A DNA stretch of 64,000 nt from IMG/VR virus record IMGVR_UViG_3300029705_000031; one strand, 5' to 3'. The notes under the pieces are model-generated. The model saw only the letters and a program-made list of their open reading frames with translations, was not told the origin of the DNA and did no database searches. This stretch comes from a virus (taxonomy: Duplodnaviria; Heunggongvirae; Uroviricota; Caudoviricetes). A program made the position numbers and the translations under genes. This document shows positions 33,867 to 49,984 of the stretch, piece after piece; within the stretch, counting starts at the first letter, position 1; every line of letters begins with the position of its first letter.

Positions 33867-35157
33867 AAATGACACATTAAGTCTGCATCAGTGAGAAATT
33901 TTCTAACAATACATTAGTATTAATGTTAGGAGGTTTCATTCAAATGAAAAATGAAAAAGAAACTAAAGAAAGATATGCTTCTGGTATTGAAAATTGTAAA
34001 AAACAAGCTCAAAATCTTAAACAAAAAGCATCTGAAAAATTTTTAAGTAAAGTTTACGAACAAGTTGGTGATGATTATACTTTTCTGGAAACTTATGTAA
34101 CGAGTAAAACTAAACTCTGGGTAATACATAATGTTTGTGGACATAAGTATAGAGTAACTCCAAATGAGTTTACTTCTCATAAAAGACGTTGTCCAAACTG
34201 TGCAAATAAAAAAAGAGTACTTAATACTGGAATAAAACCTCATACATTAGAATCTATTATTGAAAGTGTAAAAGAATTATCTAATGACGAATATGAGGTA
34301 GTTAGTAATGAGTATGAAAATAATAAAGAAAAAATTTGGGTTAGACATAAAACATGTAGTTATTCATACCTTGTTCGTTATAATGACTTTCAGCAAGGAT
34401 ATAGATGTCCTTTATGTGCTGACATGAATAAAAGTCAGAATAATTCTAAACCAATACAGGATATTAAAAGTGTTCTAGATTTTAATAAAATTGAGTATGA
34501 ATCAGAAGTGTCATTTGAAGAATGTGTAGACAAACGTTTTCTTCCATTTGATATATTGGTTTATACTGATAAAGTCAATGATGAATACTTTTTAATTGAG
34601 TATGATGGACAACAACATTCTGATCCTAATGCACAATTTGGAGGAACTAAAGAAGAAAGACTTATTAGATTTGAGCTAACTCAAAAACATGACACTATAA
34701 AAAATGCTTTTTGTGAAGAAAACAGTATAAAACTTTATAGAATTTCTTATAAAGAAGATTTGATGAGCAAACTAAGAAGTATATTGGAAGAAAATAATCT
34801 AATTTGACTTGCAGTGAATGCCGTCTAAAAACCTAGTTAACTGCGGGAAACTATCAATAAACACTATTTACTAAACTAAGATAGTAATATACTTAGTGGC
34901 AATGGGTAACTCCAAAGATATAGTAAAAAGAATAGTGTTTGATACAATCGACGCAACGAAGTATCCTACATTTAGTAAAAGATAGGATATGAGTTCAACG
35001 ACTATCGAAACCAACTAACTTAATGTTAGTAATAAGGTAAGTTGAAATACTTACACGAAGGGAGTAGAGTAGGGAAATGTAAATTACAAAGTACCGAAAA
35101 GCTAGGCTATACTAATTTAGTATAGAAAATATAGTCTAAATTATGCAAAGTAATTTG
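33867..35157 (+). mobile_element. group I self-splicing intron (ORF in P1 loop) interrupting the GyrB-like gene inside the Toprim DxDxD motif
   Basis: IGS gccgtc (34818..34823) complementary to exon end gacggu with U.G at the splice site; P-like element aactgcgggaaa (34840..34851); R element gttcaacgactatcgaaacc (34993..35012); S element aaaatatagtc (35127..35137) giving P7 gacta/tagtc; omega-G 35157; exon 2 restores ...HIASLILGFVYRH. Confidence 0.8.
33923..34807 (+). CDS. intron-encoded putative homing endonuclease: three CxxH/CxxC zinc-finger-like repeats + C-terminal Vsr/DUF559-like (EDxHD-type PD-(D/E)xK) nuclease domain
   Basis: repeats CGHKYRVTPNEFTSHKRRCPNCA, CSYSYLVRYNDFQQGYRCPLCA; C-terminal FDILVYTD...LIEYDGQQHSD...RLIRF pattern typical of Vsr-like nucleases; AGGAGG RBS. 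Confidence 0.5.
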   Translation: MLGGFIQMKNEKETKERYASGIENCKKQAQNLKQKASEKFLSKVYEQVGDDYTFLETYVTSKTKLWVIHNVCGHKYRVTPNEFTSHKRRCPNCANKKRVLNTGIKPHTLESIIESVKELSNDEYEVVSNEYENNKEKIWVRHKTCSYSYLVRYNDFQQGYRCPLCADMNKSQNNSKPIQDIKSVLDFNKIEYESEVSFEECVDKRFLPFDILVYTDKVNDEYFLIEYDGQQHSDPNAQFGGTKEERLIRFELTQKHDTIKNAFCEENSIKLYRISYKEDLMSKLRSILEENNLI

Positions 35158-39727: not shown

Positions 39728-42700
39728 ATGGCACAGAATGTAATTCAAAAGGATATTGTTGATATTCAAAAAGACAATATGCTTCAGTATATGATGTCTC
39801 TAATGTATGATAGAGCGATTCCTGATATTAGAGATGGATTAAAACCAGTACAGAAATTTATCCTTTGGAGTTGTTACAGTTCAGGTTTCTTTCCAAATAA
39901 ACCCCATGTAAAGTGTGCTAAGATTGCTGGTGATGTTATTGCTAACTTCCATCCACATTCACTAGATGCAGCTTATGAAGCATTGTGTAGACTTGCTCAG
40001 ACTCATTCTATGAATATTCCATTAATTGATTTTCATGGTGCATGTGGTTCTATTGATGGATCAGGCGCAGCAGCTCATAGATATTGTGTGACTGGTGATA
40101 CCTTAATTAGTCTACCAAATGGTAAATTAAAAAGAATTGATGAACTAATTGAAAATTCTAATGATGATTCAACTATGGATGTAGATTTTGAAGTATTAGA
40201 TTTTAAAAATAATCCAGTACATGTTTCTAAATTCTTTAATTCTGGAAAACATGATATAATCAAGATTAAAACCAGTTCTGGTTGTACTATTAGAGGTAGT
40301 TATAATCATCCTATCTTGTGTTTATATAAAAATCCTACTGATGGTCTACCAGAATTCAGATGGACAACTTTAGATAAAATTGAAACTGGATGTTATGCTG
40401 TTATAGCATCTAAATTCAATAATTCTTTTAATGAAACTATAAGTGAAGAAGAAAAGCTTAAAGCAATTTTCTTTGGTGGAATGGTTTCTGAAGGAGGTTT
40501 ATCTAAAAATCAGAGATACTATAGAGTAAGTTTCTCCAATCAAGATAATGAATACTATAATCTAGTGGAATCTGGATATAAAGTATATCTTGAAGAGAAT
40601 AATCTAAGTAATTTGAATATTCGTATTAATCCAAATGCTCGTGGTGGAGTTAAAGAATTTTGTACTGAAGACAAAAATCTTCATAATTTAGTTAAAGAAC
40701 AAATTGGTGAAGATGCTCATAATAAACAGATTCCTCCCTATGTTCTAAACTCTAATTTAGAAATTCAAAGATGGTTTTTAAAGGCACTTTTTGAAGGAGA
40801 TGGAGGAGTAACATGTCGTTTAGATAAAAGAAGAAAAGATAATGTTACTGGACATGTATTTTATTCTACTTCTTCAACAAAACTTTTGAATGAATTAAAA
40901 ATTCTATTAATGAATTTTGGTATTAGAACTAAAGTTACTAAAGACAGATCTAATTTTAAACTTACAATTTATTCTTTAACTGACATGAAAATTTTTAAAG
41001 AAAAAATAGGATTTTTAAGTGATAGAAAAAATAAAGTATTGAATGAATTAGTAGAAAATAAAGAAATACAAATTACTAAGTCTTATGGTGTTTCTTCTTC
41101 AGATAAAATTCCATATCTTGCCGAATTCATTAGAAATAATAAACTTAGAAATACACATTATTTAAAGTCTCATAGCCTAAATTGTAAACAAGATATAGAT
41201 AAACATAATGATGTAATTAAAGATTCTTTGAGTTATGAAGAATATTTTAAGCTTATGAGAAAACTTGAAGTTTTAGATTTATACCATTATGAAGAAATTA
41301 TTGAAGTTGAAAGACTACCAGAAGAAGTAGTATATTCAATTAAAGTAGATTCTAATGATCATAGTTTTATTAGTAATGGTTTTATTAGTCATAATACTGA
41401 GGCAAAACTTAGTAAATATGGATTAGATATTCTTAGTGAAATCGATAAGGATGCTGTTGATTTTGAAAAGAACTATGATGTAACTAAAGATCAACCAACT
41501 GTTTTACCTGCAGTAATTCCTAATATCCTATTGAATTCTTCAATGGGTATTGCAGGTGGTTATGCTTCTTCAATTCCTCCACATAACATCAAGGATGTAT
41601 GTAATACTGTATGTGAACTAATTGATAATCCTAATATGTCAGTTCAAGATGTAGCTAAGAAACTAGTTCCTGACTTTCCTACAGGTGGTATCTTATGTTC
41701 TAAGAAGGAAATTGAAAAAGCTTACATTACTGGTCAGGGTTCAGTAAAACTAAGAGGTAGAGCAACTATCAATAGAAATAAGAATAACACATCAGAAATT
41801 GTTATTACTGAAATTCCATTTATGACTACAATTGGTCCTCGTATGAGTGGCACATCTACTAATACTGAGGGTGGTTTGATTAATTCCATTGTAGCTAAGA
41901 TTAAAGATGGTACAATTGATGGAATTAAGGATATTCACGATATTTCTGATAAGAATGGTCTATGTATTAAAGTTTTTATCAAGAAAGATTATGACCCTGA
42001 TGTTATTCTAAATCAGTTATACAAGTTCACTCAGTTAGAATCTACTTTTAAGATCATTCTAGTTTGTAAGAATGGTAATTTCTTTAAGGTTTATAACATC
42101 AAGGAAATTCTAACTGAATGGATTGAATTCCGTGTATCTACTATTAGACGTATCATTACACATGATATCAAGAAAGCTAAGTATCGTGAACATATTCTAG
42201 AAGGTCTATTAAAAGCATTAACTGATATCGATACTGTTATTAGTATCATTAAGAAAGCTAATGGAAGAGCTGATGCTAAAGTAAAGTTAGTTAGGAAATA
42301 TGGATTTACTGATTTACAGGTTGAAGCTATTCTTGACATGAAACTTTCTCAGTTAAACTCTCTAGATGGAAAGAAGCTAGAAGAAGAAAAACTAAGTAAG
42401 CAAAAAGAAATTCTAGAACTAAAAGAGAATTGGAAAGAATCCAATATCTATGAAAGAATTAAGAAAGAACAGAAAGAATTTGCTAAAAAATATGGTAGTG
42501 AAAGAAAGACTACTGTAGAAGAGATTGATACTGATATTACTACTGAAGACATTATTGCTGATGAAGATACTTTGATTGTCATTACTCAGGGTAATTACAT
42601 TAAGCGTATTTCAAATGAGTTTAGAACTCAGAAACGTGGTACTCAGGGTATTTCTATTGGTGATAACTCTATCACAGAAATGTTCTCTGCTTCTACTAAG

Positions 42701-43543
42701 GATCATCTACTATGTTTTACTAATACTGCCAGAGTCTATGATTTAAAAGCTTATGACATTAAAGAATCTAAGGATCTTAAAGCTAAGGGTTTAAGAATTG
42801 AAAATTATCTAAATCTAAAAGAAAATGAAACAGTTACTAACATTCTATGTATCAATAATACACAGATGAATGATAATGAATCCTTCCTAGTTTTCGCTAC
42901 TAAGAATGGTATGATTAAGAAAACTAAGTTAGAAGAATTCAATAACATTCGTTCTACTGGTATTATTGCTTTGATGTTAAAGTCTGGTGATGAACTAGTT
43001 TCTGTAAAGTATATTGATACTAGTAAACCTATGCAAGATATCTTGATTTCTACTAAAAATGCTCAGACAGTTAGATATGATCATGAAGAAATCAAAGAAT
43101 TAGGTAGAAATACCTATGGTGTAATTGGTATTAATCTAGAAAATGATGACCGTATTACAGATATGTGTATCATTGAAGATGACGAACAACTAATCTTCTT
43201 TGCTACTAAAAATGGTTTAGGTAAAACTATTCGTATTACTGATAATGTAGAAAAAGTTGATCCCAATACTAAAGAAAAAGTAATCATCAATGATGGTTTT
43301 CCTAGACTAAAACGCTCATCCAACATTAAAGGCAGACTATGCATGAAACTAAAAGAAAATGACGAATTAGTTTCAATGGTAGCTATCAATAATGTAAATG
43401 ACGAACTAATGATTGTTACTGATAGCAAACTATTAGTAGTCAATACTGAAGAATTCAAAGAACCTTTAAAGAGACCTACTTATGGTAAGAAATTAGTTAG
43501 TTTGACTAATGAAGACTATGTAAGAAAGGTGATTCTAAAGTGA
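39728..43543 (+). CDS. type IIA topoisomerase DNA breakage-reunion subunit (GyrA/ParC-like; precursor containing an intein)
   Basis: N-terminal GyrA blocks HPHSLDAAYEALCRLAQ and AAAHRY(active-site Tyr)...TEAKLSKYG split by intein; C-terminal beta-pinwheel-like repeats. Confidence 0.85.
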   Translation: MAQNVIQKDIVDIQKDNMLQYMMSLMYDRAIPDIRDGLKPVQKFILWSCYSSGFFPNKPHVKCAKIAGDVIANFHPHSLDAAYEALCRLAQTHSMNIPLIDFHGACGSIDGSGAAAHRYCVTGDTLISLPNGKLKRIDELIENSNDDSTMDVDFEVLDFKNNPVHVSKFFNSGKHDIIKIKTSSGCTIRGSYNHPILCLYKNPTDGLPEFRWTTLDKIETGCYAVIASKFNNSFNETISEEEKLKAIFFGGMVSEGGLSKNQRYYRVSFSNQDNEYYNLVESGYKVYLEENNLSNLNIRINPNARGGVKEFCTEDKNLHNLVKEQIGEDAHNKQIPPYVLNSNLEIQRWFLKALFEGDGGVTCRLDKRRKDNVTGHVFYSTSSTKLLNELKILLMNFGIRTKVTKDRSNFKLTIYSLTDMKIFKEKIGFLSDRKNKVLNELVENKEIQITKSYGVSSSDKIPYLAEFIRNNKLRNTHYLKSHSLNCKQDIDKHNDVIKDSLSYEEYFKLMRKLEVLDLYHYEEIIEVERLPEEVVYSIKVDSNDHSFISNGFISHNTEAKLSKYGLDILSEIDKDAVDFEKNYDVTKDQPTVLPAVIPNILLNSSMGIAGGYASSIPPHNIKDVCNTVCELIDNPNMSVQDVAKKLVPDFPTGGILCSKKEIEKAYITGQGSVKLRGRATINRNKNNTSEIVITEIPFMTTIGPRMSGTSTNTEGGLINSIVAKIKDGTIDGIKDIHDISDKNGLCIKVFIKKDYDPDVILNQLYKFTQLESTFKIILVCKNGNFFKVYNIKEILTEWIEFRVSTIRRIITHDIKKAKYREHILEGLLKALTDIDTVISIIKKANGRADAKVKLVRKYGFTDLQVEAILDMKLSQLNSLDGKKLEEEKLSKQKEILELKENWKESNIYERIKKEQKEFAKKYGSERKTTVEEIDTDITTEDIIADEDTLIVITQGNYIKRISNEFRTQKRGTQGISIGDNSITEMFSASTKDHLLCFTNTARVYDLKAYDIKESKDLKAKGLRIENYLNLKENETVTNILCINNTQMNDNESFLVFATKNGMIKKTKLEEFNNIRSTGIIALMLKSGDELVSVKYIDTSKPMQDILISTKNAQTVRYDHEEIKELGRNTYGVIGINLENDDRITDMCIIEDDEQLIFFATKNGLGKTIRITDNVEKVDPNTKEKVIINDGFPRLKRSSNIKGRLCMKLKENDELVSMVAINNVNDELMIVTDSKLLVVNTEEFKEPLKRPTYGKKLVSLTNEDYVRKVILK
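40085..41395 (+). mobile_element. intein (437 aa) with LAGLIDADG homing-endonuclease domain, inserted immediately after the catalytic tyrosine codon of the GyrA-like gene
   Basis: block A CVTGDTLISL, block B GSYNHPIL (TxxH), two LAGLIDADG motifs AIFFGGMVSEGG and FLKALFEGDGGV, block G VYSIKVD...ISHN followed by +1 Thr (TEAKL); removal restores AAAHRY-TEAKLSKYG. Confidence 0.9.
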
Positions 43544-44869: not shown

Positions 44870-45033
44870 ATGAAGTATTCAGAATTGGTCGATCAGGTAT
44901 TCGTAACTTCGGTGGCAGGTGTTGTACCTTATATCGAAGGACATGCTGGTGTTGGTAAGTCGCAGATGATTAGAGACGTAGCAAATCTCTATCGTGAAAA
45001 AGGATTTGAGGAAGTACCTATCGTTACCTTATT
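44870..45033 (+). CDS. MoxR-type AAA+ ATPase (AAA_5 family), exon 1 with Walker A
   Basis: Walker A EGHAGVGKSQ; ORF ends 10 codons past proposed junction; exon end ccttattc pairs with intron IGS gaataagg (45945..45952). Confidence 0.7.
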
Positions 45034-46217
45034 CGGTGCGCTACTAAAAGAGGGAGAGCTTAACTAAAGGTTACAATTCTTTAATAAAGGGGATGTTTTT
45101 ATGAGAGTAAAAACAAAACCTAATGTTGATGTTGGAGTTACTTTCACAAATAACGATGGTTTAGATTTTATAGTAGATGAGATAGTAGAAATAAAAAAGT
45201 ATGAAAAAATGTGTAAAATCACATTTTTAGAAAGTGGATATTCAGCTATAGTTGGTAGTAGTTCTATAACAAAAGGAAGTGTTAAAGATTACTATCAGAT
45301 AACTATTCTTGGTGTTGCTTGTTTTGGTGATGCTAAAACAAATCCAAGGCATACTAAGCAAACATATAGAATTTATAAAAACATGTTACATCGTTGCTAT
45401 GATGAAAAAAACAAAGACTATAATTCATATGGTGGTATTGGTGTTTCTGTTTGTTCTAATTGGTTGAACTATAACAATTTTCTAAATGACCTTTATGATA
45501 TTGAAGGATTTGATTTTGAAAAATTTGAAAATGGTGAAATTAGTATGGACAAAGATAAGAAACAAAAATACATTCCTAAGAATGAAAGAATTTATAGCAA
45601 GGAAACATGTTGTTTCATATCTACTAGTGAAAATTCTACTATAAGAAATTTCGAAAATAGTCTAAATCCAGAAAAAAGAAAAATTCTTATAACCTATCCA
45701 GATGGTAATACTGAAACAATAGATAGAACAGAATTAAAAATCTATTGTGAAAAAAAGGGTTTTACAAATCCAAACCATATTAGAAGAGTTTTAAGAAAAG
45801 AACGTAATTCTTACAAAAACATTAAATTTGAACTTGTAGACTAATGGGTTCTTCATTAACAAACCTCATGAACTTAAGGTAAGATCTTAAGGTGTGTTAC
45901 TTATCGTATTAAGTAATGCTAACGGTATCAGTGGAATAAGGATAGTTTACTATCACGAAGCAGCTGACTAAGAGACTCTACGGTCCAGAAATGGATAGCA
46001 GACAATACCGTGCCAAGCTTCTCAAAAGAGATGAAGGTGTACAGACTATCGAAACCAACTAGTTTTAAACTAGTAATAAGGTAAGTTGAAATACTTACAC
46101 GAAGGGAGTAGAGTAGGATAAACAATCCGAAGGATGAGGATCTAGATTGTTTCTAGATAAAAGATAGTCGAAAAATCACATAGAAATATGGTAGTGAAAA
46201 CTACATGATTTTTGCGG
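45034..46217 (+). mobile_element. group I self-splicing intron interrupting the MoxR-like ATPase gene (splice boundaries approximate, +/- 5 nt)
   Basis: IGS-like gaataagg following cagtg as in intron 1; R element gtgtacagactatcgaaacc (46036..46055), S element aaaagatagtcg (~46160..46171); ~75 nt core 46044..46117 near-identical to 35000..35073 of intron 1 with compensatory stem change (ctaac/gttag vs ctag/ctag); no canonical U.G at 5' splice site identified. Confidence 0.7.
45101..45844 (+). CDS. intron-encoded protein (247 aa), probable homing endonuclease/DNA-binding protein with conserved YxIYxxMxxRCY...YGGIGVxVCxxW motif
   Basis: located wholly inside intron; motif recurrent in phage intron/HEG-associated proteins; no clear HNH or GIY-YIG catalytic signature found. 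Confidence 0.35.
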   Translation: MRVKTKPNVDVGVTFTNNDGLDFIVDEIVEIKKYEKMCKITFLESGYSAIVGSSSITKGSVKDYYQITILGVACFGDAKTNPRHTKQTYRIYKNMLHRCYDEKNKDYNSYGGIGVSVCSNWLNYNNFLNDLYDIEGFDFEKFENGEISMDKDKKQKYIPKNERIYSKETCCFISTSENSTIRNFENSLNPEKRKILITYPDGNTETIDRTELKIYCEKKGFTNPNHIRRVLRKERNSYKNIKFELVD

Positions 46218-47199
46218 TGGTATTCCCGTTCCTAGACGTGATGAAAATAGCAAGAAAATGATCAACGATTACACTACACATGTTAAAATGCAGCAGATTT
46301 TGGATAATGATACTAGAGGTATCAACACAATCCTCTTTATTGACGAGCTAAATAGATGTGAAGCAGCAGTGAATCAGGAACTCATGCAGTTGATTCTTGA
46401 CCGTAGAATCAATGAAACGATTCTTCCTGATTCTTGTATTATTGTTGCAGCAGGTAACCCTGAGTATGACGATGATAACGACTATCAGGTTCAGGTTATG
46501 AACGACGCCATGAAGAATCGGTTTGTTAAGTATACACTTGAAGCTGATGTAAAGGACTGGCTTAAGTGGGCATCTAACACAAAGGATGATAACAAAACTG
46601 GTACAGAAGCAATTGATTCTGACGTAATTGAGTTTATTGCAGAAATGCCTAATCTACTTCACGATCCTCATAGTAAAGAAGACATCAAGCCCACTCCTAG
46701 AGGTTGGGAACTTCTTTCTAAGGTAATGAGACAGATTAAGAATTACTATCCTGAAGATTTTGAAAGTATGTTGTTTGAAGCAGCAAAGGGTGTAGTTGGT
46801 CAGACTCCTGCAACCCAGCTAATTGGTTTCCTGAGAGATAAGAAGAATCCTATTACTTCTACTAAGGATATTTTCAAGTCTTCTGATAAGGAATTTAACA
46901 ATAACGTACTTAACAAGATTAAGGGTGATACATCCACTAGACAGTTCGTTATCATTGATCGTTGCATTCGTTACATTAGCGAAAACATTAAGGAATTCAA
47001 TGATAAGAAGACTGGTGAAAATAGCTGTAAGAGATTCATTGAAGTATGTAAGGTACTTCCCAAGGACATCATGGTTGGCGTTCTAAAGAACATTGGTGTT
47101 AATCATAAGAATATTCATGATACTTTTACTAAGTATGATGACTATATGGATCTATTCTTTGATACCAATAAGAAGACTATGACTGCGGCAAACATCTAA
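46218..47199 (+). CDS. MoxR-type AAA+ ATPase, exon 2 (Walker B, sensor and AAA lid)
   Basis: ILFIDELNRCEAAVNQELMQLILDRR...IIVAAGNPEYDDDNDYQV...AMKNRF = classic AAA_5/MoxR Walker B-sensor blocks; in-frame extension upstream of first ATG back to 46198. Confidence 0.75.
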
Positions 47200-47318: not shown

Positions 47319-48488
47319 TTGACTGATAAAGAATTGGAATTTGTAAAAAAGTTTCTAGATTTTAAAGAAGCTACTGAAAACAGTTACTACTATGATCGTT
47401 ATATAACACCAAGTGATGTTATGAAGTTTTTACAACCAGATGCAAGAAGAAACTATAAAGATGCTTGTAACATACTTTCTTATGAAGATAGAATAGATTT
47501 AGCAAAAATCTATCTAGAAAGAATAGTAAGTATGACATTTAGTAACAATTTTGGTTACTATAAAAATAGTCATAATAGTAATAAAGGTTACTATGAAACG
47601 ATGTTATCCAATAGTGGAATTGACTGTTATGTTGATGTAGCTAAAACAAATGAAGAAGGTTTTCCATTAGAGTTCAACAAGAAAAATGAGAACTTTTTCT
47701 ATATCTTCTTAGATGGTCTCTATAAGTATTGGGATAAGCAGTTAGAATACTATAAAAACAATCAACAAGAAGCTGTAGAGATTATGTTTGAATCTCAATG
47801 TAATGGTACTTGGTTTTACTATAACCATTTCAACTATAACTTCCTAAAAGTATATCTAGAATATCTGAAATCTAGAGGATTTAAGATTAACATCTTTGAG
47901 CTTTTCAATAAGAAACTCAAAAGAGTTATAAAAAGTATGGATAAAGGTTTAGCACATTATACTAAATCTTATCTATTTGAAAGTTTAGCTATAATCTTTG
48001 ATTTCTATAATGCTATTCTAGATATCTATGGAGAAGATAATGAAAAAGTAATCAATAAGCTACAGAACAATCTAATCACTATTTTCAAAGATGAAATAGA
48101 AACTGAGAAATTTGGTTTCATGAATACTTTCTTATACACAAAGAGGTGGACTAACAATAGTAAGAATAGAAGTTCTGAATCAACTAGTGATGTAGTTCAT
48201 TTCTGGGAGTATGTTTACAATAATGAACTAAATCCTACTTTAAAACGTATCTTCTTGAATGCAATAATTCATACTTGGAATAAGTCACCTATTCCAAAAG
48301 TAAGAAACTCAATGCAGTTACTAGTGGATTTAGCAACTTATAAATATGATGGAAGATCAGGATTTCCATACCATAATCAAAGATTGTTCTATAATGACAT
48401 AATTGCAAATGCAAACATGCTAAAGAAATCTGTTAAATCTATACTATTTTCTAAAGCAATTCTAGAAGAAGGAGGTTTATTTCTATAA
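47319..48488 (+). CDS. hypothetical protein (389 aa), TTG start, between MoxR ATPase and VWA genes
   Basis: ORF with AAAGGAG RBS; stop overlaps next start (TAATG). Confidence 0.5.
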   Translation: MTDKELEFVKKFLDFKEATENSYYYDRYITPSDVMKFLQPDARRNYKDACNILSYEDRIDLAKIYLERIVSMTFSNNFGYYKNSHNSNKGYYETMLSNSGIDCYVDVAKTNEEGFPLEFNKKNENFFYIFLDGLYKYWDKQLEYYKNNQQEAVEIMFESQCNGTWFYYNHFNYNFLKVYLEYLKSRGFKINIFELFNKKLKRVIKSMDKGLAHYTKSYLFESLAIIFDFYNAILDIYGEDNEKVINKLQNNLITIFKDEIETEKFGFMNTFLYTKRWTNNSKNRSSESTSDVVHFWEYVYNNELNPTLKRIFLNAIIHTWNKSPIPKVRNSMQLLVDLATYKYDGRSGFPYHNQRLFYNDIIANANMLKKSVKSILFSKAILEEGGLFL

Positions 48489-49984
48489 TGGCAGCTAAAG
48501 TTAGTACTAAGAATACTAGTTTAGAAGACATGAATGTAGAAGAACTTAAGAAAAGATGCTTAGAATGTGTTAACAACAAGGATCTTAATACTGCAACAAG
48601 ATACTTTAAAGAGTACATTGAATTGATCATCTTCAATCTATTGATTTCAGATCACTTCTTTGGTACTTTCATTATCCATATGCAAAGAGAAATTCGTTAT
48701 GATTTCTATGCACCTGCAGGTGTAACTATCAAAAAAGGTTCTCCATTATTGGTAATAAATCCTGCTCTACTACTAAGATATACTCATAAAGAAGTTAAAG
48801 CTATTCTAAAACATGAGGTTTATCATCTACTTCATTTCCATCTTCTAAGAAGTAAAGAGAATAACAATCGTTTTGATAGCTATATTGAGAATATCGTTAT
48901 GGACGTTGCTATCAACCAGTTCATTCCAGAAATTCCTGATGAATGTGTTACGTTTGACAATTTCTGTAAACAGTTTAAACTAGATCCTTACAGAGTATCT
49001 CGTAAAGAATCTTTTGAGTATTACTTAGAACTAGTAAAGAATAGTGATGTATACAAAAAAGATTCTGAACAGTATAAGCAAATGATGAAGGATATTCAGG
49101 ATATTCTTGATCAGCTTAATGAAAGTATGGGTCAGAATGGTAATGGTTCTGGTAGTGGCTCTGGATCTGGTGATGGTAAAAATGGTAAAGCTTCTGGAAA
49201 TGGTTCTGGAAATGGTGGAAAATCCATTCAGGAAATGTTAGATGAAATTCTAGATAAGAAATATCCTATTGATCATTCTATCTGGAAAGAATCTGATAGT
49301 TCCGATGTTCAGAACATCAAGGAGATCGTTAAGCATATGGTAAATGAAGCAATCAAGAATTGTGGTAATGTACCTGGCGATCTACAAGAGCTAATCAATA
49401 AGATTAATGAACCTACTATCATTAAGTGGCAGGATGAACTAAAGAGACTTGTTGGTTCTGTTAAGTGTCCTTATAAACTTACTCCTCTAAGAAGACCTAG
49501 AAGACAGCCTGATAGAATGGATCTTAAGGGTAAAATGTCTGATAGAAAAGTTAAAATCGCAGTTGCTATTGATACTTCTGGTTCTATGGGTGAAAGAGAA
49601 CTTCAGTTTGTATTCTCTGAAATCTTTAAGATTCTAGAATTGGTTAAGTTTGAAATGACAATCATTGAATGTGATTATAACGTACAGAGAGTTTATAAGG
49701 CTAAGAACCTGCAAGAAGTTGACATGAATGTCAAGGGACGTGGAGGTACAGCATTTACACCTGTCTTCAAATATCTTAAGGAAGAAATGCGTCAACAAGA
49801 TAAACCTGACTTACTGGTTTATTTCACTGACGGATGGGGCGAGTCTTGTCTTGACGAAAAGTATCATATTAGTAGTAGTACCAAACTAATGTGGGTATTA
49901 ACAGGACGTAAGAAAGATTTATCATGTTCTGGACATGGTGCTTGGACTAATAAGATCAAAGAACTTAAGATGAACGAAAGATAA
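48488..49984 (+). CDS. VWA-domain protein with N-terminal putative metallopeptidase-like (HExxH) domain; typical partner of MoxR ATPases (DUF2201-like architecture)
   Basis: HEVYHLLH motif; MIDAS motif KIAVAIDTSGSMG; Gly/Ser-rich linker; gene order MoxR-x-VWA. Confidence 0.6.
   Translation: MAAKVSTKNTSLEDMNVEELKKRCLECVNNKDLNTATRYFKEYIELIIFNLLISDHFFGTFIIHMQREIRYDFYAPAGVTIKKGSPLLVINPALLLRYTHKEVKAILKHEVYHLLHFHLLRSKENNNRFDSYIENIVMDVAINQFIPEIPDECVTFDNFCKQFKLDPYRVSRKESFEYYLELVKNSDVYKKDSEQYKQMMKDIQDILDQLNESMGQNGNGSGSGSGSGDGKNGKASGNGSGNGGKSIQEMLDEILDKKYPIDHSIWKESDSSDVQNIKEIVKHMVNEAIKNCGNVPGDLQELINKINEPTIIKWQDELKRLVGSVKCPYKLTPLRRPRRQPDRMDLKGKMSDRKVKIAVAIDTSGSMGERELQFVFSEIFKILELVKFEMTIIECDYNVQRVYKAKNLQEVDMNVKGRGGTAFTPVFKYLKEEMRQQDKPDLLVYFTDGWGESCLDEKYHISSSTKLMWVLTGRKKDLSCSGHGAWTNKIKELKMNER

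Follow-up and report, generated by a model that had tools for sequence, protein, structure and literature searches.

That phage genes can contain group I introns has long been known, and the introns closest to the one described here are those of T4 td and Staphylococcus phage Twort (subgroup IA2), which interrupt nucleotide-metabolism or DNA-polymerase genes. In both, P2 lies between P1 and P3, and P3 abuts J3/4-P4. Other gut jumbo phages are reported to carry about 18 group I introns per genome. Group I introns have also been reported in AR9/PBS1, with intron endonucleases that combine CapR modules with a Vsr/PD-(D/E)XK-like domain (PMC12350094). In the passages covered here of papers on AR9/PBS1, the several introns and inteins lie in essential genes, with introns described for RNA polymerase, terL, nrdD and DNA polymerase genes, and an intron in an AAA ATPase gene is not mentioned. 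Here, we analyze a 64,000-nt stretch (the window) of the Caudoviricetes record IMGVR_UViG_3300029705_000031, which belongs to the same phage lineage and in which the gene of an AAA_5 (MoxR-like) ATPase is interrupted. The insertion, 45061-46214, is very probably a group I intron of the phage IA type, predicted to splice, in an uncultured AR9/PBS1-related jumbo phage.

Predicted splice junction in the ATPase gene

The ATPase gene appears as two open reading frames (ORFs) on the + strand, which carries all features of the gene and its intron. The first (44870..45067, 65 aa) contains the Walker A motif GHAGVGKSQ, and the second (46258..47199, 313 aa) contains the blocks ILFIDELNR, AAGNPE and KNRF in a frame that is open back to 46198. 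An earlier reading made from the letters of the window (the sequence-only reading) had recognized both pieces and proposed a group I intron within a MoxR-like AAA_5 ATPase gene, and this proposal is supported by a gap-free joined product, P1, P7 and a guanosine as the last intron base (omega-G). The borders given at the time, 45034-46217, do not hold: the alignments move the 5' site 27 nt downstream and the 3' site 3 nt upstream. Both junctions considered then, VTLFG-IPVPRR and VTLFGG-IPVPRR, delete the residues ALLKEGELG(G), which are conserved in every intron-less homolog.

Alignment of the joined product to its homologs fixes the junction at 45060/46215. Joining these two bases yields a 391-aa product without gaps relative to intron-less alleles in both the protein and the DNA alignment, and we therefore take the intron to be 45061-46214 (1154 nt, 29.5% G+C, first base U45061, last base G46214). 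Five uninterrupted metagenomic homologs (P0001-P0004, P0006) have exactly this length and share 87-91% identity with the joined product, while three others measure 390 aa (P0005, P0007) and 422 aa (P0008). At the DNA level, the alignment of 77 nt over the junction to six intron-less loci contains no gap, and intron-less alleles (391 aa, 84-91% identical) read ...TLFGALLKEGELGGIPVPRR across the insertion site. The intron-less ortholog of AR9, gp028 (annotated as AAA family ATPase), also aligns over the junction and contains SVLKEGELTG. Against the join at the earlier borders, gp028 shows these residues as an extra segment after LFG, corresponding to the ALLKEGEL that follows LFG in the 65-aa ORF; hence exon 1 ends 27 nt beyond the border drawn before.

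In an alignment of 20 sequences, the intron site falls into the most conserved motif of the protein. The sequence ALLKEGELGGIPV / TLFGALLKEGELGGIPVPR spans the junction in 12 of the 20, the joined window product among them, and the remaining, more distant homologs show conservative changes at this motif; G56, E61, E63, G65, G66, I67 and P68 are nearly invariant. Two further insertions at this site were reached via two homologs starting with M(V/I)NDYTTH. In L003, another metagenomic phage contig, an ORF-less insertion of 419 nt occupies exactly this position, and its exon flanks are the same (AAAGAGGGAGAGCT/.../CGGTGG); locus L004 retains the 3' part of a third copy of the intron. Only one cut agrees with the alignment as well as with group I chemistry, after U45060 (GAG CU/U AAC UAA) and after G46214 (UUUUUG/C GGU GGU). 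No other G would both restore the frame and agree with the homologs; L003 and L004 likewise read ...UG/CGGUGG. A cut one base later on both sides would give the same joined sequence, but the intron would then end in C instead of G.

Exon 1 (44870..45060) thus starts at M1, contains the Walker A sequence GHAGVGKS and breaks off after the second base of the Leu64 codon. Exon 2 (46215..47199) begins with the third base of that codon and continues through GGIPVPRR... and the Walker B motif ILFIDELNR to the stop codon at 47197-99. Neither exon contains a frameshift, and all residues that are invariant in the family are retained. The joined protein matches AAA_5 in Pfam (E 1.1e-6) and PHROG 1297 'ATPase' (E 7.6e-58). 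Walker A, Walker B, the AAA_5 domain and a nearby gene for a VWA-domain partner together identify it as MoxR-like; this VWA-like and metallopeptidase gene (48488..49984) lies close to the ATPase gene, as in AR9.

Guanosine-initiated self-splicing would join GAGCU to CGGUGG (...KEGEL-GGIPV...), and the spliced RNA would read ...GGGAGAGCT joined to CGGTGGTATT.... Translation of unspliced RNA would stop at the in-frame UAA (45065..45067) located 5 nt into the intron and would yield only the 65-aa Walker A fragment. A genuinely split ATPase, in which this peptide and the 313-aa remainder are two translation products that assemble, with a free-standing endonuclease gene between them, would fit the calling of both pieces as separate ORFs and the internal ATG of exon 2 at 46258. 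However, the exon 2 frame lacks a ribosome-binding context, and its ATG lies 43 nt inside conserved coding sequence, so that GGIPVPRRDENSKK would be lost. Moreover, a split gene does not account for the roughly 370 nt of conserved, structured RNA that is non-coding and has features of a group I intron, and the L003 copy demonstrates that the insertion exists without an endonuclease gene. We regard a split ATPase as highly improbable and favor an intron.

P1 and the internal guide sequence

The last eight bases of exon 1, GGAGAGCU, and the first two intron bases, UA, form the 5' strand of P1 (45053..45062), with the 5' splice site after U45060. All ten bases pair with the 3' strand (45845..45854), which contains the internal guide sequence UGGGUUCUUC and is identical in L003. 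The sequence-only reading had found no U.G pairing for the 5' splice site; U45060 and G45847 form such a wobble pair within the 10-bp P1, a helix that is also predicted by unconstrained folding. In L003, P1 comprises 11 of 11 pairs: the splice site is followed by UGA-GUAA-UUG-GGUUCUUC, GGAGAGCU pairs with GGUUCUUC, the exon U faces a G, and a GUAA (GNRA) loop caps the helix. In the window, the guide sequence begins one base past the stop codon of a 247-aa ORF. Because the same guide sequence starts right after this stop codon and L003 has a short loop instead, the ORF is best described as an insertion in the P1 loop.

A different P1 had been proposed, in which ccttattc (45027-34) of exon 1 pairs with gaataagg (45934-41) as guide, together with an intron at 45034/35-46217 and a product reading ...VTLFG(G)-IPVPRR. 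The 8-nt complementarity exists, and the reading frame would be kept by splicing after U45033 and G46217. Nevertheless, 62% of shuffles also give a perfect complement of 8 nt shared by the insertion and the end of exon 1; the match is at chance level and has no function. An even better pairing partner of this exon segment is AATAAGGTAA at 46075-84. This P1 also lacks a U.G pair, and the corresponding product loses residues found in AR9 and all close homologs.

Furthermore, most of gaataagg belongs to the 23-nt motif GCTAACGGTATCAGTGGAATAAG (45918..45940), which covers J3/4 and the 5' strands of P4 and P5 and is invariant in the intron family. An exact-pattern scan of IMG/VR finds GCTAACRGTATCAGTKGAATAAG in 58 phage contigs, inside insertions in unrelated genes with different exon ends. 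Examples are the split dnaE of a Staphylococcus phage SPbeta-like and a gap with an I-HmuI-type ORF in Clostridium phage CS266P1. A guide sequence must change with the exon and this motif never does, hence gaataagg cannot be the guide. In line with this, the exon partner ccttattc reads ctttgttt in L003, although L003 carries the same intron with the motif unchanged. The borders tied to this pairing are ruled out by the protein and DNA alignments, and we consider the arrangement as a whole almost certainly wrong.

Predicted fold of the intron core

Pairs were counted helix by helix in the window, L003 and L004, without use of the MAFFT alignment (A3), which misplaces hairpins that vary in length. 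In each helix scored, the three copies show 100% pairing except for one U.U in P6a; P6a of L003 and P7 of the 5'-truncated L004 are not scorable. The strand sequences differ among the three copies in PA, PB, PC, PD, P7.1a, P8, P9, P9a and P9b (PA to PD being provisional names). For covariation, 22 non-redundant family members were aligned and all column pairs scanned. Compensatory changes back P3, P4, the basal pairs of P6, P7.1, P7.2, P8 and P9.

The R element GACUAUC (46044..46050) and the S element GAUAGUC (46163..46169), which had been recognized correctly in the sequence-only reading, are complementary at all seven positions and form P7; the 5' strand is nearly invariant in the family and td. 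The 5' strand of P3, CCUCAU (45864..45869), pairs at six of six positions with AUGAGG (46134..46139), reads CCUCGU/AUGAGG in L003 and is recovered by unconstrained folding. In the 22-member alignment, P3 shows 18 extra pair types over 8 bp, and its strands come from the stretch that immediately follows the guide and from the one that separates P7.2 from P8. It forms 106 of 128 possible pairs compared with 68.9+-6.3 in partner shuffles, and none of 5000 shuffles reaches the observed value, four rows being anchored wrongly in this test. P3 and P7 cross each other and can form the pseudoknot of a group I core. An alternative P3, ACUCUAC/GUAGAGU, has complementary strands in the window and in L003. 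The family does not keep this pairing, and we prefer the covarying CCUCAU/AUGAGG.

Between P3 and P4 lie two hairpins. PA (CUUAAG/CUUAAG, 45873..45891; CCUAG/CUAGG in L003) shows compensatory changes in the family, and PB (GUGUUACUUA/UAAGUAAUGC, 45894..45919; GUGUUAUUCA/UGAAUAAUGC in L003) is an 8-bp run with 18 extra pair types. The helix order upstream of P4 is therefore P1-P3-PA-PB-P4, with only 9 nt from the guide sequence to P3 and no P2 there. An order without P2 and with two covarying hairpins between P3 and J3/4-P4 (window 45855-45921) is typical of the intron family (L005-L065).

The P4-P5-P6 domain is present, the internal register of the P5 extension being only partly settled. P4 pairs ACGGUAU (45922..45928) with AUACCGU (46005..46011) at seven of seven positions, and a G-C to A-U double change gives ACAGUAU/AUACUGU in the SPbeta-like dnaE introns. 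The sequence around the 3' strand, UAGCAGACAAUACCGUGCCAA, resembles UAGUAGACAAUCCCGUGCUAA of T4 td. A P4 formed by ACGG/CCGU inside the P5 extension is contradicted by the SPbeta-like sequences, which support the distal ACGGUAU/AUACCGU. P5 (CAGU 45929-32 / GCUG 45963-66; 45929..45966) encloses hairpin PC (45941-45 / 45950-54), and its extension contains hairpin PD (GUCCA-GAAA-UGGAU, 45983..45996), which reads GCCCA/UGGGU in L003 as a compensatory change and has five extra pair types in the family. P6 (46012..46038) consists of the basal pairs GCC/GGU (46012-14 / 46036-38) and of P6a, CUUCUC/GAGAUG (46018-23 / 46028-33), closed by an AAAA loop; the basal pairs covary, with GCU/AGU, GUC/GAU and GCG/CGU in other members. 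Within 45967-46004, CUA[C/A]GG and AGC[A/U]G covary (C with A, A with U) with one exception, L031, among 58 loci. No Watson-Crick register was found for them among those tried, and they may represent a tertiary or non-canonical contact in the P5 extension.

Downstream of the R element, an elaborated P7.1 (46058..46098) is built from ACUAGUUU/AAACUAGU (46058-65 / 46067-74; ACUAG/CUAGU in L003) and GUAAGU/ACUUAC (46081-86 / 46093-98). P7.2 (GGAU/AUCC, 46116..46128) corresponds to a helix that covaries strongly in 14 other introns. P8 (AUCUAGA/UCUAGAU, 46140..46158) reads CUUAGAUU/AAUCUAGG in L003 and GUCUAGU/ACUAGAU in L004. P9 is a three-way junction (46171..46213) with a closing helix AAAAAUCA/UGAUUUUU (46171-78 / 46206-13) and the inner hairpins P9a (46179-82 / 46187-90) and P9b (46191-94 / 46201-04). 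The closing helix reads AAAUAUCA/UGAUAUUU in L004 and GGUAACUA/UAGUUACU in L003, there with two inner hairpins of different sequence. One base past it, at G46214, the intron ends and the 3' splice site follows. The RNA can thus form P1, the P3/P7 pseudoknot, P4-P6, P7.1, P7.2, P8 and a three-way P9 that ends at the omega-G.

Relation to known group I introns

T4 td and Twort likewise have a P1 with a U.G pair, an omega-G and an endonuclease ORF in a peripheral loop. The order P7 - P7.1 - GAGUAG - P7.2 - P3' - P8 - P7' is the same, and the J5/4-P4'-P6 sequence UAG(C/U)AGACAAU(A/C)CCGUGC(C/U)AA is common to these introns and the one in the window. In contrast to td and Twort, the window intron lacks P2, has two hairpins between P3 and J3/4-P4 and a large P5 extension, and its P7.1 is elaborated by two extra hairpins. 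In td, the ORF is placed between the 5' strand of P6 and the P7 core, whereas the window ORF lies in the P1 loop, and the host gene is an AAA_5 ATPase gene. Because P7.1 and P7.2 are present and the placement of P2 and P3 is not as in td and Twort, we file the intron as IA-like and not as IA2.

Relatives are also found among Firmicute phages, where a stretch of about 65 nt in the P4/P5 region recurs in unannotated gaps of split genes. The introns with GCTAACRGTATCAGTKGAATAAG share the same 5' half (P3, PA, PB, P4 and the P5 extension) with 80-87% identity over these ~65 nt and have the same architecture. They differ in host gene and guide, and most of them hold an ORF or extra sequence in P6 and not in P1. 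The elaborated P7.1 of the window intron occurs in only a few members (L016, L017, L018, L053).

With an nhmmer profile of the 3' half of the family, the T4-type td core is found at 33 bits (E 1.6e-8 for 1 Mb); the profile of the 5' half does not reach td. A covariance model was built from 14 family members, with the window, L003 and L004 excluded, and scores td at 54 bits. In the 64-kb window, its first match is 46034-46173 in the ATPase intron and its second is 34990-35140 (19.0 bits) in another intron described below, so that both introns rank top. Both cores score weakly since P7.1 carries a 60-nt elaboration. A third match (48616-48705, - strand; 16.9 bits, E 0.76) lies inside the VWA/metallopeptidase gene and is probably noise.

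The intron ORF

The 247-aa ORF (45101..45844) encodes a putative HNH-like homing endonuclease. A Shine-Dalgarno-like sequence, AAAGGGGA (45086..45093), lies 7 nt upstream of its start, and the protein would be made from this ribosome-binding site of its own. The ORF matches PHROG 2081 'HNH endonuclease' (E 8e-47) and has no sequence match in Pfam, NCBIfam or the PDB. Ten homologs, nine of them longer than the ORF itself, likewise show no Pfam domains. In HMMER searches, 16,113 cluster representatives match at E<=1e-3; the ORF thus belongs to a very large protein family without a Pfam or NCBIfam model.

In the AF2 model (pLDDT 77), an N-terminal SH3/Tudor-like barrel is accompanied by a beta-beta-alpha element (residues 147-188) that holds the invariant residues D150-K151-D152 and N178. 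The ORF and its four closest homologs all keep the pattern D-K-D...Q...YS.ETC...N unchanged. The best Foldseek match of the model is I-HmuI from the Bacillus phage SPO1 intron (1u3e, E 1.3e-3). Both proteins are intron-encoded, modular and extended. The ORF shares 17% identity with I-HmuI and differs from it by the lack of a Pfam HNH match, by D-K-D at the position of the catalytic His and by the added N-terminal barrel. The 247-aa ORF is plausibly an HNH-type homing endonuclease without the canonical His. Such a protein would cut intron-less alleles near LKEGELGGIP and spread the intron by double-strand-break repair.

Evidence for and against splicing

Several observations weigh against a splicing group I intron in the ATPase gene. 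No match to Intron_gpI (RF00028) is obtained in the window, the 1.6-kb region or the ORF-less L003, neither at the Rfam gathering threshold nor at E<=10, and the window core reaches only 20.9 bits (E 0.14) in the covariance model of its own family. P10 is weak (5 of 6 pairs, one mismatch), and P7 is too nearly invariant for covariation to be informative there. The helix order upstream of P4 is unlike that of td and Twort, with no P2 between P1 and P3 and two hairpins between P3 and P4; it was not matched to either of them, and a literature search found no description of it. The ORF has D-K-D where D-H is expected, so that its nuclease activity is uncertain. Finally, support for splicing consists of sequence comparison and predicted pairing.

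The Rfam result is uninformative, because the same search misses the T4-type td intron: even at E<=1, Rfam 15 returns no Intron_gpI for td (L007) or the SPbeta-like dnaE intron. Phage IA introns are a blind spot of the search (L005, L006, L007).

The weak model scores, the weak P10 and the missing catalytic His would all suit a ribozyme that no longer splices, with the gene a pseudogene or expressed as fragments only and the insertion a decaying selfish element. Decay is difficult to reconcile with core helices that are all intact and kept through compensatory changes, and with exons that retain their frame and invariant residues. In addition, of the eight contigs compared over the intron core (45845-46230; L066-L073), seven are identical. 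The exception, L071 (JGI 3300018493), is changed only in hairpin PC (window 45941-54) and at a single base of the PB loop. The ATPase gene is also conserved beside its VWA partner, as in AR9. We therefore judge a decayed intron to be unlikely and retain the reading of a group I intron that is predicted to splice.

A second intron and an intein

A further intron (intron 1, 33867-35157) interrupts gyrB and splits the Toprim motif (DADDDG/LHI), with its 5' site after U33866 and its end at G35157. Its guide GCCGUC (34820-25) pairs with GACGGU, and its exon products carry GyrB, Toprim and GyrB_C domains. The intron 1 ORF (294 aa, 33923..34807) also lies in the P1 loop. It contains DUF4379/CapR zinc modules and a weak DUF2726 match, a make-up as described for the AR9/PBS1 intron endonucleases. 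The two intron ORFs belong to different families (PHROG 559 for intron 1 and PHROG 2081 for the ATPase intron; BLASTP E 0.15), in agreement with the sequence-only reading.

The two introns had also been said to share their core. This is true of a 74-nt block, 46044..46117 in the ATPase intron and 35000-35073 in intron 1, which is 92% identical and contains the 5' strand of P7, the P7.1 hairpins and GGGAGUAGAGUAGG, and of a short S element. Outside these segments there is no significant similarity between the introns, the halves upstream of P7 show no detectable resemblance, and intron 1 lacks the 23-nt motif. Most differences within the block fall into hairpin P7.1a, which is complementary in both introns (ACUAGUUU/AAACUAGU in the ATPase intron, ACUAAC/GUUAGU in intron 1). 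Instead of one intron whose endonuclease gene had been swapped, as proposed before, the window holds two different introns with one common block. From the sequence comparison, the block looks like a core module that the introns have exchanged, or like the product of gene conversion.

Between the two introns, the gene for gyrA or topoisomerase IV subunit A (39728-43543, 1271 aa) contains an intein (Intein_splicing, residues 127-556) whose endonuclease domain is of the LAGLIDADG_3 type. A span of 14 kb thus holds three predicted self-splicing elements.

Alleles and distribution

The intron-plus allele with an identical ORF is present in at least 24 contigs, and the longest contig that carries the intron ORF measures about 320 kb. 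The gene order, gyrB ... AAA ATPase - metallopeptidase/VWA, matches that of AR9/PBS1. Intron-plus and intron-less alleles are found in the same samples (ENA ERZ27248370, JGI 3300018878).

The intron-plus alleles (the window, L003 and, at the 3' flank, L004) share GAG GGA GAG CU/C GGU GG, although L003 is otherwise diverged. Intron-less alleles (L074-L078, L002) read GAA GG(C/A) GAA UU(G/A) GG(A/U) GG(A/C) at the positions corresponding to window 45047-45060 and 46215-46223; L076, for example, reads ...AAGGAAGGAGAATTAGGAGGAATACCC... at the site. The two types of allele are therefore distinguished by synonymous changes that cluster at the insertion site. Co-conversion, the constraint set by P1 or resistance to cleavage would each be expected to produce such a pattern.

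Implications

The intron-split ATPase gene is a further case of a known phenomenon and leaves the general picture of group I introns unchanged; its value lies in the corrected junction and in a useful series of alleles. A more far-reaching claim would be a widespread, uncurated intron class (at least 58 IMG/VR contigs) with a non-canonical helix order that is undetected by Rfam, combined with exchange of a 74-nt core module between two dissimilar introns. We put this forward tentatively and think it rather doubtful. If true, the module exchange would be direct evidence for modular recombination between ribozymes.

For annotation, the two ORF fragments, which gene callers at present give as orphans of 65 aa and 313 aa, belong in one 391-aa ATPase joined at 45060/46215. 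Furthermore, Rfam misses this class of introns as well as the T4 td intron, and the AAA_5/MoxR-type ATPase gene is added to the known insertion sites of phage introns. Intron-less alleles, alleles with an ORF-less intron and alleles with an intron plus ORF form a natural series for homing and for the invasion of ribozyme loops by endonuclease genes.

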